Shown here piece by piece: positions 44,529 to 53,229 of a DNA stretch of 64,000 bases; position 1 is the stretch's first letter; every line of letters begins with the position of its first letter. The notes below the pieces were generated by a model. That model was not told the DNA's origin, did no database searches, and was given only the letters and a program-made list of their open reading frames with translations. Where the stretch lies: the sequence record OR525700; one strand, given 5' to 3'. The DNA is from Escherichia phage vB-Eco-KMB37. A program made the position numbers and the translations under genes.

Positions 44529-46688
44529 ATGAAACAGGCTATTTTTACTGTAACTCGAAATACGAGAGTAAATGCCAGTTCATTCAGCTATAAGACCGTC
44601 GATGGAACGGCGGTCGCTGGTAGAGATTATGTAGCTAAACAGGGAACAGTAACGTTCCCTTCTGATGCAGATTCTGCTACTGTAGTGGTTGATGTATATG
44701 AACGTCCGGCAAACTCTTTAGATCTTTATTTTACTCTTGAGATTACTAGCATAAGTCAAAATAACATGATGATCAATGAAGAAATTCGTTGTGTTATTAC
44801 GACTAATCAATCGAATACGACCCCGCTAACTTGGCCTGTTGTGAAGTCTAGAATGTTTGATCCTAAGTTTTGGACAATAGATTCTCAAGCAACAGAAAGT
44901 TGTTCTATTATCTCTAATGGTGATTCTTTCACAGCAAGAATGGTTAATAGGACAGTGGCTGGTCTTGCTGGGATTATTTGGTCAACTTACGATAAATATG
45001 ATCACAAAGGATTAGGCTACCAAGAACATTCTGACTTAAGTAAAGAGAAACTTTGGTTTAAAATGGAACTTAGTCAAGGTGTTCCTGGATTAAAAGAAGA
45101 AAAATTAATACCATCCTTAACAGTGACACTGAAGGATGAAACAGTTCATTATGTATCTCTAAACTTTTATGCAGAAGAAGTTTCAGAGGATGGTAAAACA
45201 GCAACAATCAAACTAGATTTCTCAAATTTAAAATCTGGGCCAGAAAATGATATTGTTGTTGACACTACACAGATAGATAATATGTTCTTCTCCTTGATCT
45301 CAACGAGGTATCAAGAAATTGAAGATATTATTCCTGTAGACAATGAGGATCTTTCCTTTAAGTTTACCATACTGGAGCCTGATACTGGTTACAGTATGAT
45401 GAATATGGGTAATTTAAATGTTCCAGCACACACCATAAGAATGTGTACATCTTATGATGATATGTATAACCTGACCCCAGAGCGAGTTATTTCTAACACC
45501 TACAGATTAGGTTATAGGGATATGATTAACCACTATAATGGTATGTCACACTATTATCAGTTTAGTTGGGATGCTGGTTCTAATAAATGGGCTTTGAATA
45601 GAACAGAATATTTAAACCCAGCAACAGAAGCATGGTTTGATAATTTCCACGCTAATGCAAAAGCTATGGGCTACACAGTAATGAATTCCTTAAGTTTTGA
45701 ACTTATGAGTACAGTGTGTCCTGTAGAATGGGTACAACATACTTGGAATGATAATCTTGCTGCTACAGGTTATGAGCCACCAAGTTATGTTTTATCTCCT
45801 TCAATTGATGAAGGGATGGATTATTTACAAGGTGTAATAAATAAGATAGCTTCTATATCCGCTGCTAATGATCTTCCGGTTATTATTCAGGTTGGTGAAC
45901 CGTGGTGGTGGTATAACACAGCTACCAATCTACCGTGTATTTATGATTATACAACCAAAGTTGCATTTAATAATGAAACTGGATTGTATGCACAAGATGT
46001 TGGTACAGTTAAAAATTATAAAACTGGTACACCATATGATGAATATTATGCATTCCTATCTAAAACATTAGGACTGCGTGTTGCTAAATTTGCAACAGAT
46101 ACCAGATTAGCATATCCTGGAGCTAAAGTTACATTGTTACCATTTGTGCCATCCATTTTGGGTAATGGTATGATGGAGTTTGTTAACTTCCCTAAAGATT
46201 ATTATATCCCAGAAAACTTTGACTTTTATTGTTCAGAATGTTATGACTGGTTGTTGGAAGGTAAGATGGAAAGATCTTTCGACGCTATCACAATACCCAA
46301 TGAGCAACTAGGTTTTAGTTATGATAAGATACATTATCTTGCAGGGTTTGTTCCAGATGCAACTCTAGCACCATTATATGGCTTTGATCCTGAATCAGAC
46401 TACAGAACATACTTGTGGAAAATGATTATAGGTAATATTGTATTGAATGATCAGAAGTTTGTTGGTTTATATCAATACATATGGGCTTACCCACAAATAA
46501 TGCATGATTCAATAACTGTTCTTAATTCAAAATCCCAAGTGTTTTATATGGGTAATGTGCCTTTGAATTGCTACTTGCAAGATATCACTCTTAAACAGGT
46601 AAATGTTGAGATTGCCACTATAAGTGGAATTACATTAGCCACCAAATCTGGAGAAGATTTAGTAACAACACAAAAATTTTATATATAG
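44529..46688 (+). CDS. Large structural protein (719 aa)
   Basis: Size and position. Confidence 0.4.
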   Translation: MKQAIFTVTRNTRVNASSFSYKTVDGTAVAGRDYVAKQGTVTFPSDADSATVVVDVYERPANSLDLYFTLEITSISQNNMMINEEIRCVITTNQSNTTPLTWPVVKSRMFDPKFWTIDSQATESCSIISNGDSFTARMVNRTVAGLAGIIWSTYDKYDHKGLGYQEHSDLSKEKLWFKMELSQGVPGLKEEKLIPSLTVTLKDETVHYVSLNFYAEEVSEDGKTATIKLDFSNLKSGPENDIVVDTTQIDNMFFSLISTRYQEIEDIIPVDNEDLSFKFTILEPDTGYSMMNMGNLNVPAHTIRMCTSYDDMYNLTPERVISNTYRLGYRDMINHYNGMSHYYQFSWDAGSNKWALNRTEYLNPATEAWFDNFHANAKAMGYTVMNSLSFELMSTVCPVEWVQHTWNDNLAATGYEPPSYVLSPSIDEGMDYLQGVINKIASISAANDLPVIIQVGEPWWWYNTATNLPCIYDYTTKVAFNNETGLYAQDVGTVKNYKTGTPYDEYYAFLSKTLGLRVAKFATDTRLAYPGAKVTLLPFVPSILGNGMMEFVNFPKDYYIPENFDFYCSECYDWLLEGKMERSFDAITIPNEQLGFSYDKIHYLAGFVPDATLAPLYGFDPESDYRTYLWKMIIGNIVLNDQKFVGLYQYIWAYPQIMHDSITVLNSKSQVFYMGNVPLNCYLQDITLKQVNVEIATISGITLATKSGEDLVTTQKFYI

Positions 46689-46696
46689 GAGTAAAA

Positions 46697-47548
46697 ATGT
46701 CAACTACAATTACTAATTTACCCGAAACATCAAAAGTTAATGGTTCTGATTACCTGGTTTTAGACCAATCTGATAAGACTGTTAAAAGCACAGTTTCCAA
46801 CTTTCTTACTGACACTGGGGTGGTTTTAGCCACCCAGTTGAAAGATACAGATGGGGCATCTTTCATCAATACTTCTGACGGTGACTCTGTGCAGGTACAC
46901 CTAGATGCTATTGAGTCTGCTGCCCAAGTAACCACAAATTTGATTAAAGAAACCAATTCTGTAATTCCACCAGACTATAGTCGCCAACTTATTATTGGTG
47001 TTACTGATCGTGCGGGTGAAGCCAGTGCACAAATTCGTGCCGATGCTGGTAAAGGCGAAACTAATCCTATCCCCCAATGTATAGCAACTGACCCGGTAAC
47101 AGGAGAATTCTTTATTACTCGTGGATGGGATGCAATATCTCCTGTGTACGTTCATATTTATGACCGTAATTTTAACTTCCTTAAGGTTGTACGAGCTGGA
47201 GGTGGTTGGGGTGAGGGTATAGTTATCGGCTATGTTAATGGTGAACGTCGTATTGCAGTTAGTCGTGCATCTGCTGGGTATGCTGTTTATTCTTTACCGG
47301 CTACTGAAGACATTACTGGTTTAAATAGTGCAACTCTATTGTTTGAGCAGACTAGTGCTAACCAAGAGGCACAGCTTTCCAGTTATGGTAACTATGTAAC
47401 AATTCGCTGTTCTCATCTTGGTGATGACCGGTATATACGCCGCAGTCTGTATAGTGTGTATGACTTACAAGAATTTCTTACTACACCAGACCCAGTAAGA
47501 AAGAGTTTTATTCATTTCCCGTCTGACCAGATGAGTGGGGGGTATTGA
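46697..47548 (+). CDS. Tail fibre-associated protein (putative)
   Basis: Position; overlaps next gene by 14 nt in another frame. Confidence 0.35.
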   Translation: MSTTITNLPETSKVNGSDYLVLDQSDKTVKSTVSNFLTDTGVVLATQLKDTDGASFINTSDGDSVQVHLDAIESAAQVTTNLIKETNSVIPPDYSRQLIIGVTDRAGEASAQIRADAGKGETNPIPQCIATDPVTGEFFITRGWDAISPVYVHIYDRNFNFLKVVRAGGGWGEGIVIGYVNGERRIAVSRASAGYAVYSLPATEDITGLNSATLLFEQTSANQEAQLSSYGNYVTIRCSHLGDDRYIRRSLYSVYDLQEFLTTPDPVRKSFIHFPSDQMSGGY

Positions 47549-48761
47549 TACTAACTTCTTGGTTACTAAGTGTCAGGCAACTTGCCTTAGCCCTCGTGGG
47601 ATGGCTGGTCACAACGGTCAGACTTGGCACACTGTCAATGCTAACAGAGAGCTTCCGGGTTATCGCTTGCGATTCATTGAGGTATCTCATGGTGGTGATG
47701 TAATCACTAACCAAGTGCTGCATCCTAAATATGTGCTCGCTGAATATGCAAACAAAGGTTGGACACGTCCACTTGGTCAACCTTTAGATAATACGGAACC
47801 AGAAGGTATCTGCTACTCAAATGAGTATGGGTATGTCTGGCTTACAGTAATTTCTGAGCGAGTGTTTATTACCGCTCAGTATAATCCTGTACTGGCTGCC
47901 GAGTTGGATACTAATCGTGATTTAGACTTACGTGTGGCAGCTTTGCCACAGAGTAACAACCCAGGTAGTGCAAGATCTGTGTCAGCTAATGCCCCGATAG
48001 ATGATACTTCTGGTACTGCGTTGACTACCCCAGATGAAATTGTGGATATGATGCGTGCACGCCACTTACGTTACTACTCATGCTCACTCCGTAATGGATT
48101 AACTTTTGGTGATGTTTCTTTTACTGGAGACTACAATATGGCTGAGTTTGTATTGGTGGATGGAAACCAGTGTGCTGTCACTATCACCATTGAACGTAGT
48201 AATGTTCACCAGTTCTTCGCCTCTGGTGATACCCCAAGAAGATGGATGTATAGTGCAGTGCAGTATGGAGGTACTACATCTGATCAGGTAACAGGGGGTA
48301 GGACTTCTATGATCCAAATCGCACCAAATAACTTTGGGCAGATCAGGGTAGTTACCGCTGGCACTGGCAATCATACCCCGATGCAGTTTATAAGTAACCA
48401 GACAGCAGCAGTGGGGTCAATCACTATGACCAGCACTGCTACTGCATTCAACACTACATCGGATGAACGTCTTAAAGTGCTGCATGGCAATGTTCCAGAT
48501 GCTTTATCTATTATTGAATCTATGATTAATGACGGTGCAGTCCAGATGGCGGCATTTAAAGCTGATCCAGATAAAATATACCCTATGCTGATTGCCCAAC
48601 GCGTAGCTAAGTCTTGTGACTTTGCTGTAACTAAAGGTGATGGTGAGTATGGTGAAGAAGGATTCATCCCTGATATGGTAGATTACAGTAAACTTGTTCC
48701 ACTTTTGTTTGCTGCCATTATGCAGTTAAAAGCAAAGTTAGATGAGTGTGAAAGTAAGTAA
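47535..48761 (+). CDS. Tail fibre/spike protein with C-terminal intramolecular chaperone (S74-like) domain
   Basis: C-terminal about 100 aa (TSDERLKVLHGNV...LVPLLFAAIMQLKAKL) resemble the auto-cleaving chaperone domain of endosialidase-type fibres. Confidence 0.5.
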   Translation: MGGIDTNFLVTKCQATCLSPRGMAGHNGQTWHTVNANRELPGYRLRFIEVSHGGDVITNQVLHPKYVLAEYANKGWTRPLGQPLDNTEPEGICYSNEYGYVWLTVISERVFITAQYNPVLAAELDTNRDLDLRVAALPQSNNPGSARSVSANAPIDDTSGTALTTPDEIVDMMRARHLRYYSCSLRNGLTFGDVSFTGDYNMAEFVLVDGNQCAVTITIERSNVHQFFASGDTPRRWMYSAVQYGGTTSDQVTGGRTSMIQIAPNNFGQIRVVTAGTGNHTPMQFISNQTAAVGSITMTSTATAFNTTSDERLKVLHGNVPDALSIIESMINDGAVQMAAFKADPDKIYPMLIAQRVAKSCDFAVTKGDGEYGEEGFIPDMVDYSKLVPLLFAAIMQLKAKLDECESK

Positions 48762-48766
48762 TAGTA

Positions 48767-48790
48767 ATCCCCTCTTCGGAGGGGTTCTTA
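48767..48790 (+). terminator. Rho-independent terminator
   Basis: CCCCTC-TTCG-GAGGGG hairpin then TTCTT. Confidence 0.5.
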
Positions 48791-48809
48791 GAAAAACAAA
48801 GAGGTACTT

Positions 48810-48959
48810 ATGAACGAGATGTTCTCACAAGGCGGTATTGCCCCAGGTACTACTGCCATTAGTCTTAGTGCTGCTGTACTTGTGCATTCAGCGGGTTCTG
48901 TAGACCTTGGGGAATTAGCTGTATCTTGTGATTTAAAAAGTAATGAGAACGCACCATGA
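48810..48959 (+). CDS. Hypothetical small protein (49 aa)
   Basis: AGAGG RBS; stop overlaps the next ATG (ATGA coupling). Confidence 0.25.
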   Translation: MNEMFSQGGIAPGTTAISLSAAVLVHSAGSVDLGELAVSCDLKSNENAP

Positions 48960-49201
48960 GAAAATTTTTAATAGGTATGTTTTGTACATATCCTGATAAT
49001 AAAGTCAGTTCTACTAAAGTTTGGAATGCTATTGGTATGATTGTTATGTCCAGTATGTTTATTTATTTGGGAATTGATAAAGAAATTCCTGAATGGATGG
49101 GCTGGGCTTTTGTTTTTATGATCACACCATCCAGACTAATGAAGAATTTAATAGATTTACGTTGGGGCAGATCACCTGCCCCTGATAAGGAGGATAACTA
49201 A
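48956..49201 (+). CDS. Small two-TM membrane protein (holin-like or exclusion-like)
   Basis: Two hydrophobic segments (VWNAIGMIVMSSMFIYLGI; WMGWAFVFMITP) and charged C-terminus in 81 aa. Confidence 0.4.
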   Translation: MRKFLIGMFCTYPDNKVSSTKVWNAIGMIVMSSMFIYLGIDKEIPEWMGWAFVFMITPSRLMKNLIDLRWGRSPAPDKEDN

Positions 49202-50688
49202 TGGCAGATTATGGTTTAACAGATGCTGGTTTTGTAATTCCAACGTTTGATGATATTTTAAATAATTATATGACAGCATTGAAAAACACTTTCGGTGCAG
49301 ATACAGCTACATCTGAAGATACTGTCTTTGGTCAACTGTTTCGTATTATTGCATATACAGATTACACCCTTTGGGAAGGTATGCAAGGTGTTTACAATAC
49401 CCAAACCTTAGATGGTGCAGAAGGTATTTACCTTGATGAAATCTTCTCTAAAAGAGGTTTTTATCGTAAAGCTGCTTCTGCTGGTAGTGGTTATGCTTAT
49501 GTTAAATCTAACAATAAGGCAGCTTGGACTTATGAACTAAGCACAGATGTTTATTTTAATGCCGATAACGATTTGACATATTATGTCAGTGCACCAACAA
49601 TGTTGAATGCTAAGATTGGAGCATATACCATTTCTAAAGCAAACGCAACAGCTTCTGGTGAAACTTCTATTACTTTCTACATTCAAAGTGCTATTGATGG
49701 TGGTCTTAACAGTAAAACACTAAGTCCTAGCAATACAAACTTTATTTTAGATCTCACGAATTTCATTAAAGCTAACGTATCAACAACAGATCGTGCTTTA
49801 GTATGGAATGATGCTAGTAATGTTTATATGGGTTATAATCCAGAAGATAATGTTAACCCAATAGGTCTAGTAACACCAGTGAAATTTTACGCATCTATTG
49901 CAATTGGTACAAAATGGAGTGAAATTCCAGTTACGTGTTCAGACGTTGGTTATAATCCAGTAGGTACAGAAAGTATTACAGGTATTTCTTCAACGTTTAC
50001 AGGTTTTTTAGATACAGGTAACTTCTATCCATTCTCTCCAGGTACGGATGTTGAAACAGATGCAGAATTCCGCTCTCGTTTCAATGATAATATGGATGAA
50101 GCTAATGCTGCTACTCGTGCTGCTATTGTTAAAGCCCTGCTACTGACAGATGGTGTGACAAAGGTTAAGATTTATGATAACCCTACATTACATGATCAGG
50201 AACATGCTCCAGCTATGACATTCCAGACTATTGTGTATGGTGGTACAGCAGAAGAAGTTGCACAGGTTATTTATAATACTAAGCCTATTAACACCCTAAC
50301 CTATGGTACAACAGCAATTACTATCGTAACAGAAGATGGTGGTCAAGAAGTAATTCGTTTTTCTCCTGGTGACAATGCTGAATATTCACTTAAACTAGTA
50401 TATCAAACTGGCAATGGTAGTGTGTTAAGTACAACAGAAAGAGAAAATATTGTTTCTGCTCTTTCAAATCTACAGGCTTATTTTGAGTTAGGGTCAACAG
50501 TAACTAACGATCAGATAAAAGGTGTAATTTATTCTGCACTTGCGTTCGGACGCTTGACTTCTCTCCGTGTTTATGTTAAACTTAATACTGAGGATGACAG
50601 TAAATATAATGAGGGAGATATCACTCCAGCGTACAATGTTGTACCATCCTTTGACCTTGATAATATTTCCTACGAGTACGGAGTCTAA
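49201..50688 (+). CDS. Baseplate J-like protein (putative)
   Basis: 495 aa; position two genes upstream of the fibre and Tfa genes (J-I-H-Tfa-like order). Confidence 0.4.
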   Translation: MADYGLTDAGFVIPTFDDILNNYMTALKNTFGADTATSEDTVFGQLFRIIAYTDYTLWEGMQGVYNTQTLDGAEGIYLDEIFSKRGFYRKAASAGSGYAYVKSNNKAAWTYELSTDVYFNADNDLTYYVSAPTMLNAKIGAYTISKANATASGETSITFYIQSAIDGGLNSKTLSPSNTNFILDLTNFIKANVSTTDRALVWNDASNVYMGYNPEDNVNPIGLVTPVKFYASIAIGTKWSEIPVTCSDVGYNPVGTESITGISSTFTGFLDTGNFYPFSPGTDVETDAEFRSRFNDNMDEANAATRAAIVKALLLTDGVTKVKIYDNPTLHDQEHAPAMTFQTIVYGGTAEEVAQVIYNTKPINTLTYGTTAITIVTEDGGQEVIRFSPGDNAEYSLKLVYQTGNGSVLSTTERENIVSALSNLQAYFELGSTVTNDQIKGVIYSALAFGRLTSLRVYVKLNTEDDSKYNEGDITPAYNVVPSFDLDNISYEYGV

Positions 50689-52887: not shown

Positions 52888-53229
52888 ATGGAGCTAACAG
52901 AAGTATGGGATATCGCTAAAGAGGCGATTATCCCTCTTATTGGCGTAATCTGGGTGGTCTTCAAACAGAAGATAGATGATATGGCAAGTGATTTGGATAA
53001 AATGGAAGACAAATACCGCGAACTAGAAAAGAAGTTGGTGTTTGTTGAATCCACTTATGCTACCAAAGCAGAACTTGCTCAAATGCTTAACCAGATCAAC
53101 TCTACATTAATGGCAAATAATACTGCCTTAGAACAGAAGATTGAAAAAATAATGGATTTAAAAAATGCTCCTGTTCAATTAATGTTAGAGGAGATTACAA
53201 AGCGCACACAAAGTAAGGACAAAAATTAA
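52888..53229 (+). CDS. Hypothetical protein with N-terminal TM-like helix and coiled coil
   Basis: EAIIPLIGVIWVVF hydrophobic segment then Lys/Glu-rich coiled coil. Confidence 0.35.
   Translation: MELTEVWDIAKEAIIPLIGVIWVVFKQKIDDMASDLDKMEDKYRELEKKLVFVESTYATKAELAQMLNQINSTLMANNTALEQKIEKIMDLKNAPVQLMLEEITKRTQSKDKN

Follow-up and report, generated by a model that had tools for sequence, protein, structure and literature searches.

The holin genes of phages T4 and T7 lie among tail-fibre genes: t directly follows gene 38 in T4, and 17.5 directly follows gene 17 in T7. In the phi92-, rV5- and PVP-SE1-like myophages, common components of therapy and biocontrol cocktails, the holin has so far been called unidentifiable or been assigned to differing, genus-specific small proteins. 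For the rV5-like group it 'could not be positively identified' (PMC6658697), and the KPP-1 paper agrees. Here we analyse a pair of small open reading frames (ORFs) within 64,000 nucleotides (nt) of Escherichia phage vB-Eco-KMB37 (sequence record OR525700), a stretch we refer to as the window. The second ORF encodes an 81-amino-acid (aa) membrane protein that, judged by its genomic context, is probably the holin of this phage and of phi92/rV5-like phages; the broader statement that it is a holin or an antiholin we consider highly probable. A first-pass annotation had thought a membrane protein unexpected among fibre genes, an impression that the T4 and T7 gene orders dispel. It had also listed a holin among its candidates, and this idea gains support from context, since members of the same protein family sit between endolysin and spanin genes in the lysis cassettes of other phages.

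The window runs almost colinear to the genomes of Escherichia phage W22 and other phi92-like myophages (Justusliebigvirus, Stephanstirmvirinae). Both small ORFs are real, lie on the + strand and meet in an ATGA overlap (TGA/ATG). They are placed, as first described, inside the fibre module, with tailspike, fibre and baseplate genes around them. Three features make up the core of the locus:

48810..48959, + strand: 49-codon ORF, remnant of a tailspike N-terminal domain
48956..49201, + strand: gene of the 81-aa inner-membrane protein, phrog_1322, probable holin
49201..50688, + strand: baseplate J / gp6-like wedge subunit (Pfam Baseplate_J 4.5e-11; phrog_6 2.5e-46), the conserved downstream neighbour

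The 81-aa protein belongs to phrog_1322, a PHROG family labelled 'membrane protein' (expectation value (E) = 4.7e-27, residues 1–80 against profile positions 3–82 of 87), and all 23 aligned relatives (23/23) match the same family. A profile search of 1.84 billion representative proteins returned only 23 clusters, which marks the family as small. By tblastn the gene is present in 371 phage records, and its numbers by host genus run alongside those of the major capsid protein (Escherichia 218 versus 217, Klebsiella 40 versus 40, Cronobacter 15 versus 15). Throughout the enterobacterial and Aeromonas rV5-like supergroup the gene occurs about once per genome, which makes it in essence a core gene. 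Compared with its counterpart in ZCKP1, synonymous divergence (pS) is 0.74 and non-synonymous divergence (pN) 0.10 (pN/pS 0.14), and within the genus only synonymous differences occur: the gene is under strong purifying selection. At its edges the family probably overlaps PF10841 (DUF2644). The window protein has no match to that model at E ≤ 0.1 and two of the 23 relatives do match, with a best E of 0.036 in the local model version; precomputed tables give PF10841 for the distant members P0039, P0054, P0056, P0058 and P0059. Around 20 GenBank records named 'Campylobacter phage' (for example A110a, A13b and C15) contain proteins that share 100% identity with proteins from phi92-like or rV5-like phages of E. 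coli, among them the 81-aa protein (A110a) and rV5 gp129 (C15), and their host labels look doubtful.

Distant members of the family carry the holin assignment. On two ~100-kilobase (kb) myophage contigs, L031 and L032, a gp25-like Sheath_initiator gene is followed by an Amidase_3 endolysin (phrog_435, 1e-38), a phrog_1322 member (4e-18), an inner-membrane spanin (i-spanin; phrog_1152, 3e-20), an overlapping lipoprotein (lipobox MMGC) and a J-like wedge gene. The L031 wedge aligns with the window wedge over its full length at 40% identity (E = 7e-117), and the L031 phrog_1322 member with the 81-aa protein at 36% identity. On these alignments we read the L031 locus as orthologous to that of the window, here with a complete lysis cassette in which the phrog_1322 member is the sole non-spanin membrane protein. 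The arrangement recurs on further contigs with other enzymes. L029 encodes a Peptidase_M15_4 endolysin, then after 2 nt a family member (phrog_1322, 3e-23) and two overlapping membrane/coiled-coil genes; in L034 and L035, an endolysin of the GH108 plus PG_binding_3 type overlaps the member (6e-23) by 4 nt, with i-spanin and outer-membrane spanin (o-spanin; lipobox MVGC) genes after it. In L026 the end of the endolysin gene overlaps the start of the member, and in L028 the member is followed by a weak spanin match. Members in cassettes match phrog_1322 at 1e-18 to 1e-25.

Three unrelated endolysin families (Amidase_3, Peptidase_M15_4 and GH108) are thus encoded directly 5′ of phrog_1322 members, with spanin or spanin-like genes 3′ in most contigs. 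An order of endolysin, small membrane protein and spanin is the standard genomic signature of a holin. Neither the cassette endolysins nor the T4-lysozyme-type endolysin of W22 has an N-terminal transmembrane (TM) or signal-anchor segment, and a canonical holin is therefore required. The presence of phrog_1322 in the holin slot of relatives' cassettes yields a single testable candidate for several hundred genomes and a handle on lysis timing in the phi92/rV5-like group. The gene itself is of an ordinary kind, and its functional assignment is a useful one.

The protein's architecture is compatible with this role. Small size, at least one TM helix and a hydrophilic, charged C-terminus are features that it shares with the holin class. 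The first of the two hydrophobic helices reported by the first-pass annotation stands: TM1, at about residues 22–40, is a robust transmembrane helix (Kyte-Doolittle mean 1.71 over 19 residues). The second (TM2) fared less well and is weighed below. An AlphaFold2 model of low confidence (predicted local distance difference test score, pLDDT, 63.7) places helices at residues 2–9, 19–41, 46–56 and 59–70; compared by Foldseek with BFVD it found the family alone, and a PDB profile search gave no match. Net charge on the N-terminal side is +3, DKEIPE forms an acidic loop, and TM2 leads into a basic amphipathic helix and a charged tail, with five basic and four acidic residues among the C-terminal 22. 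This charge pattern points to a hairpin with both termini in the cytoplasm and the acidic loop in the periplasm. Three elements are conserved across phrog_1322: S-(H/S)-T-K-x-W before TM1, E-W at the opening of TM2 and L-R-(W/F/Y)-G after TM2.

Several observations weigh against the holin assignment. Scans of Pfam, NCBIfam and PHROG with the window protein and 22 relatives returned no named family besides phrog_1322 and no match to a holin model. TM2, from W47 to about M62, is short, kinked by a proline (P58) and below the hydropathy threshold, and so is marginal at best, while the cytoplasmic motifs are conserved more strongly than is usual for holins. In the window lineage the gene adjoins no endolysin; 26 kb separate it from the spanins, and the endolysin gene falls outside the window. 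The authors of the rV5 study found two transmembrane domains (TMDs) by both predictors in gp129 only and proposed that protein as the holin (PMC3606486). Profile comparison of the family with the T7 holin gives inconsistent hhalign probabilities (45% for the whole family, 33% for its distant half, 5% for its close half and 0.2% for Stephanstirmvirinae only). The literature searched contained no experiment on any phrog_1322 member. Finally, the L034 cassette encodes, just upstream of its endolysin, a four-TMD protein of 126 aa together with a coiled-coil/TM protein that weakly matches holin and hemolysin PHROGs, and the phrog_1322 member of that cassette could be an antiholin or accessory protein.

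This last observation bears on a wider alternative, in which the 81-aa protein serves as an antiholin or timing accessory and another membrane protein is the true holin. Beyond L034, L029 supplies a coiled-coil protein with a C-terminal TMD that precedes its endolysin (319–669), W22 encodes several further small proteins with two or three TMDs, and TM-plus-coiled-coil proteins of phrog_5345 and phrog_15210 recur next to or near the family. The L031/L032 cassette speaks in the opposite direction, having no other non-spanin membrane protein, as do the positions of W22's other small membrane proteins, which are in early-strand regions, and the restricted distribution of the published candidates from other genera, CB7_82 and rV5 gp129, neither of which is supergroup-wide. 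On balance we judge an antiholin or accessory role unlikely. The coiled-coil proteins with a C-terminal TMD and weak holin and hemolysin matches (L034 3416–4178 and L029 319–669) are of interest in their own right, as the phrog_1322 lysis cassettes of L034 and L029 may encode multi-component holin systems.

We surveyed the remaining lysis genes and the competing holin candidates of the group. The spanins are found as first reported, with no transmembrane protein adjoining them, and a second late membrane protein lies in the fibre module itself:

22603–23034, + strand: i-spanin (phrog_4297, 1.9e-40, Rz-like spanin), beside the large terminase gene
22940–23269, + strand: o-spanin with lipobox LMMTGC (phrog_1267, 2e-20, Rz-like spanin), overlapping the i-spanin gene
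52888..53229, + strand: 113-aa protein with one N-terminal TM helix and a long coiled coil (phrog_15210; weak phrog_5345 and Rz-like spanin matches)

The endolysin of the near-identical phage W22 is a soluble enzyme of T4-lysozyme type, encoded outside the window region, and no holin is annotated in W22. The W22 'hol-like chemotaxis protein', whose window homologue would lie near 10 kb on the minus strand, lacks any hydrophobic segment and does not qualify as a holin candidate. In addition, a gap between annotated genes of W22 (PV159336, 129169–129435, outside the window) holds an unannotated 88-aa ORF with two strong TM segments, one of several small early-region membrane proteins of that phage.

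Neither candidate published from other genera accounts for the supergroup. The gp129 family is found in 116 records (Escherichia, Campylobacter, Shigella, 'Phage' and Vequintavirinae), none listed from Stephanstirmvirinae. CB7_82, proposed as the holin in the CB7 paper and encoded beside a SleB-like hydrolase, has relatives in 11 records and in no Stephanstirmvirinae record. The authors of the BME3 study described 61-residue and 81-residue proteins as class-II-holin-like on topology alone, with two TMDs by DeepTMHMM for the latter (PMC12210895). In the GenBank record of BME3 the 81-aa gene is annotated 'membrane protein-holin' and its product is identical to that of the window; we take this to be the 81-residue protein of that paper. 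The holin reading has therefore been proposed before, and as far as we could find, the synteny and core-gene arguments are new.

The 113-aa protein is called 'lipoprotein' in the annotation of relatives, yet it is without a lipobox. Its gene comes directly after the fibre-assembly gene, the slot that t occupies in T4. Counterparts of phrog_5345 lie 3′ of the fibre-assembly gene in LL12 and CB7 and in the corresponding region of 2L372D; proteins of this family are encoded directly beside the phrog_1322 gene in L036 and next to or near it in CB7 and 2L372D. The 113-aa protein adds to the fibre module a second late membrane protein that is conserved; its possible role as an accessory lysis protein is speculative.

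The first-pass annotation had offered superinfection exclusion or receptor blocking as the other possible function. An exclusion factor that blocks injection in the manner of T4 Imm, or a protein that masks the receptor, would suit a gene placed among receptor-binding genes, and PHROGs assigns phrog_1322 to the category 'moron, auxiliary metabolic gene and host takeover'. At 83 aa, Imm is also an inner-membrane protein of similar size, and the helical-hairpin membrane architecture of the 81-aa protein resembles it. This likeness does not extend to sequence: hhalign against T4 Imm gave 0.4% and Pfam no match, and more generally the 81-aa protein has no similarity to lambda S, T4 Imm or the spanins. 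Known injection blockers act early; T4 imm, for one, belongs to the early genes and is not part of the structural operons. The 81-aa gene, by contrast, is inside a late operon, is a core gene under strong purifying selection, and encodes a protein that stays invariant while the adjoining tailspike cassettes are swapped, so that identical copies occur in phages with different tailspikes. Together with the presence of family members inside endolysin–spanin cassettes, this leads us to regard an exclusion or masking function as very improbable.

A second alternative takes its cue from the neighbouring wedge gene. The TAA of the 81-aa gene overlaps the wedge ATG at 49201 (TAATG, 49199–49203), and the final codons of the 81-aa gene contain the Shine-Dalgarno sequence of the wedge gene. 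The protein might then be a membrane-anchored morphogenesis factor or a minor baseplate or fibre component of the virion, with the coupling to the wedge gene setting stoichiometry. The same TAATG coupling to a J-like gene is seen in L033, throughout the rV5-like supergroup the gene keeps to the tail module, conservation of the juxtamembrane motifs is strong, and the label 'structural protein' is attached to it in ESCO5, ESCO8, ESCO9 and ECGD1. Gene order across the group tells a different story. In Stephanstirmvirinae and L033 the phrog_1322 gene is directly upstream of the wedge gene, but this adjacency is not kept: in LL12, CB7, 2L372D and L036, the genes for fibre assembly and for a TM-plus-coiled-coil protein precede it and a fibre gene follows, several kilobases downstream in LL12, CB7 and 2L372D, and in L029 and L034 it sits in a lysis cassette with no adjoining wedge gene. 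CB7_35 was not detected by virion mass spectrometry, although its structural neighbours all were, and the 'structural' labels (ESCO5, ECGD1) are not traceable to proteomics, the phAPEC8 copy being annotated as hypothetical. We accordingly see only a small chance that the protein is a morphogenesis factor or virion component.

The same overlaps and motifs invite a further idea, to which we give less weight still. The 81-aa protein could represent a new holin class, with start/stop overlaps tying its dosage to the synthesis of baseplate and fibres, a tail or TM-plus-coiled-coil partner bound by the cytoplasmic motifs (S-H/S-T-K-x-W and L-R-W-G), and hole formation gated by the completion of tail assembly. 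If this very unlikely scheme were true, the lysis clock of the phage would be one that senses assembly, not purely concentration.

Taking the 81-aa protein as a conventional holin, we propose the following course of events, in which late expression, membrane topology and hole formation are all inferred. The gene would be transcribed late within the tail and baseplate transcript, a timing suggested by co-orientation and start/stop overlaps in the tail operon, and ribosomes would load either at the ribosome-binding site of the upstream ORF or at the gene's own weak GAGAA (−11 to −7). In the inner membrane the protein would form a small hairpin of helices, its two termini in the cytoplasm, and accumulate. 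At a critical level it would produce a membrane lesion through which the soluble T4-lysozyme-type endolysin could reach the cell wall, and the spanins encoded at 22603–23269 would then disrupt the outer membrane and complete lysis.

We turn to the 49-aa ORF, which the first-pass annotation had joined to the membrane gene as a translationally coupled small-protein pair. Comparison with relatives undoes that pairing. Only residues 9–40 match PHROG tailspike families, at internal positions of tailspikes of 550–1170 aa, and tblastn places the same segment within tailspikes of Ackermannviridae and of Gamaleyavirus / G7C-like podophages. The corresponding ORF of PD06, BME3 and ZCKP1 has 102 aa and constitutes a complete tailspike N-terminal domain: it aligns with residues 1–95 of PDB entry 4OJ5 (CBA120 tailspike protein 1, TSP1) at E = 4e-49 and is near-identical over the first 60 residues, with further matches to 4QNL, 5W6F/6NW9 and 5W6H. 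Alignment with the PD06 102-aa form and Vi01 TSP3 resolves the window ORF into MNEMFSQGG (codons 1–9) joined to IAPGTT... (codons 63–102 of the 102-codon form), the junction 48836/48837 marking an in-frame loss of 53 codons. Read-through sequence unrelated to the TSP1-type domain supplies the last ~8 residues (DLKSNENAP). Set against the N-terminal domains of CBA120 TSP1 (4OJ5), TSP3, TSP4 and G7C gp63.1, the ORF is internally deleted (residues 10–62 of a domain of ~95 residues) and no receptor-binding or enzymatic body follows. It reads as a fragment of the CBA120-TSP1-type tailspike family rather than a member, and is probably non-functional.

A comparison of eleven relatives reveals a decay series at this position, with the following states of the small ORF:

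102 aa: PD06 and ZCKP1, also BME3
49 aa: window, ECGD1, alia and W22
114-aa chimera that opens with 51 residues matching a T7-type holin (47/51 identical): SKA64
66-codon open frame without a start codon: ESCO9
frameshifted, the MNE-start ORF stopping ~60 nt short of the membrane gene: ESCO8
absent, with an AGAGG site for the membrane gene itself and 7 extra residues at the N-terminus of the membrane protein: ESCO5 and phAPEC8

The overlap with the membrane gene is therefore lost in ESCO8 and ESCO9, and the fragment itself is missing from ESCO5 and phAPEC8, all four being viable isolates. We also considered selection that keeps the remnant open for translational coupling, and rejected it on the loss of coupling in ESCO8 and ESCO9. 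A functional small protein, whether a stub at the tailspike docking site or an obligatory leader peptide for the membrane gene, would agree with the good Shine-Dalgarno sequence and ATG of the ORF (as against the weak site of the membrane gene), with the survival of the reading frame and ATGA overlap through the 53-codon deletion, and with the three of five independent variants that are open through to ATGA. The decay series is difficult to reconcile with such a function, as is SKA64, where the front of the ORF is replaced by half of a T7-type holin gene. Across the shared 40 codons there are 0 synonymous and 2–3 non-synonymous differences between phages, so every substitution is non-synonymous; these counts are small and alone no proof of neutrality, and the structural variants are the stronger argument. 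We find a functional 49-aa product improbable, a judgement independent of the alternatives for the 81-aa protein.

The remnant's history can be traced further. AGAAAAACAAAGAGG-N5-ATG is common to the small ORFs of PD06, ZCKP1, alia, W22 and ECGD1, and the AAAGAGG site of the 49-aa ORF is inherited from the ancestral tailspike gene. The DNA of the small ORF is identical in ZCKP1 (Phapecoctavirus) and PD06 (Justusliebigvirus), whose membrane genes are near synonymous saturation (the pS of 0.74 given above). A remnant that is identical across genera with saturated membrane genes travels with the exchangeable tailspike cassette and not with the membrane gene, and this sets a recombination boundary at ATGA. 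We suggest that truncation of a horizontally acquired tailspike gene of CBA120 TSP1 type left only the N-terminal domain of 102 codons, from which 53 internal codons were later deleted. The remnant retains its old ribosome-binding site and start codon and is probably translated, and ribosomes may re-initiate at ATGA; the arrangement of remnant and membrane gene appears incidental and dispensable, the two ORFs not forming a functional pair. As a clear and datable example of tailspike cassettes exchanged among Ackermannviridae, T7-like phages and Stephanstirmvirinae and then decaying, the remnant also warns against labelling such stubs 'tail protein' in annotation.

The SKA64 chimera (L024, OM362897, 1114–1458) deserves separate mention. 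Here a T7/K1F-type holin piece is fused to the tailspike-domain remnant at a ~10-nt microhomology (CAG-TTGGTG), which implies that a 'tailspike + holin' block of a T7-like podophage recombined into a Phapecoctavirus. That a holin fragment has come to lie beside the proposed resident holin gene is a coincidence.

In the window, the genes around the locus run, from 5′ to 3′, from a phi92 gp141-like tail protein through a 719-aa protein and a variable tailspike cassette to the 49-aa and 81-aa ORFs, and on to the baseplate-J-like wedge, a DUF2612 baseplate protein, the fibre, the fibre assembly protein, the 113-aa membrane protein and, by W22 annotation, a colanidase tailspike. Further features of this neighbourhood are:

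44529–46688: 719-aa protein with a non-contractile-tail-sheath TIM-barrel domain
46697–48761, + strand: variable tailspike cassette at the phi92 gp143 position (ORFs 46697–47548 and 47535–48761)
48769..48784, + strand: stable hairpin CCCCTC-UUCG-GAGGGG, a perfect palindrome 3′ of the upstream tailspike stop
48798..48804, + strand: Shine-Dalgarno sequence AAAGAGG of the 49-aa ORF (AAAGAGG-N5-ATG)
49187..49193, + strand: Shine-Dalgarno sequence AAGGAGG of the wedge gene, within the last codons of the 81-aa gene

The two cassette ORFs, of 283 aa and 408 aa (GTG start), overlap by 14 nt and may represent either a pair of genes, as W22 has, or a single gene with a frameshift. They have weak PHROG tail-fibre matches, and relatives hold unrelated cassettes at the gp143 position. 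Among 50,697 phage records, matches at the DNA level are confined to the first ~177 nt, the N-terminal anchor, and the cassette is new at this level. The hairpin at 48769–48784 is likely a transcript-end or attenuator hairpin at the border of the exchangeable cassette. The scan flagged it only as a minus-strand site, and the + strand reading rests on its perfect palindrome; on the + strand only TTCTT comes after it, so it is no strong intrinsic terminator. Relatives have an equivalent hairpin of different sequence in the same place. Each variant tailspike cassette (window, L001, L002, L006 and L011) ends in a GC-rich tetraloop hairpin of its own sequence (CCCCTCTTCGGAGGGG in the window), after which comes the conserved string TAGAAAAACAAAGAGG; from these sequences, the junction of hairpin and ribosome-binding site looks like the recombination joint of the tailspike cassette system. 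No promoter-like motif is enriched near the locus and a sigma-70 scan stayed at chance level; the T4-type late-promoter motif TATAAATA shows no enrichment, nor does the rV5 motif TGGTAAAATA, and neither occurs near the locus. A 157-aa ORF at 41171–41644, a candidate for a gp25-like protein, gave no PDB match and no BLASTP similarity to the Sheath_initiator protein of L031.

Against this background, the proposed holin can be set beside described lysis systems. In the XhlA/XhlB module of the Bacillus element PBSX, a small two-TMD holin is paired with a membrane-anchored coiled-coil partner. The phrog_1322 genes similarly recur beside TM-plus-coiled-coil proteins (phrog_5345 and phrog_15210, and the L029 and L034 proteins). 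The matches to XhlA and to holin/hemolysin families are weak and sub-threshold only; the TM helix of the 113-aa window protein is N-terminal, not C-terminal, and the two window genes are 3.7 kb apart.

The class II holin gp17.5 of T7 (PF10746) is, like the 81-aa protein, a small membrane protein (67 aa) with a charged C-terminal tail. Profiles of the two share a local similarity over the loop, TM2 and the C-terminal helix (L-x-E-W ... Y ... K-x-I-D/S-L/W-K/R). By hhalign, the 81-aa family scores 26.6 against the T7 holin, whereas shuffled profiles score 11 ± 2.5 (maximum 21, with 0/180 reaching the real score) and other real membrane proteins 7–17. The N-terminal halves are unrelated, the window protein being longer and having a clear first TM helix, and hmmscan found no match of the 81-aa protein to PF10746. 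As the signal is gone when close relatives alone are used, we do not claim homology to the T7 holin. T4 holin T is further removed, with 218 aa, one TMD, a large periplasmic domain and no sequence similarity to the window protein.

It is in gene layout that both phages come closest. The T4 gene t ends the tail-fibre cluster, after the fibre assembly gene and far from the endolysin gene e and the spanin genes, and T4 uses the same soluble type of lysozyme as this phage. T7, for its part, couples a holin gene placed right behind its fibre gene with spanins beside the large terminase gene, as in the window phage. By analogy, the dispersed layout that we propose, with the holin among fibre genes, the spanins by the terminase and the endolysin elsewhere, would have a precedent in T7 for its first two elements and in T4 for its first and third.

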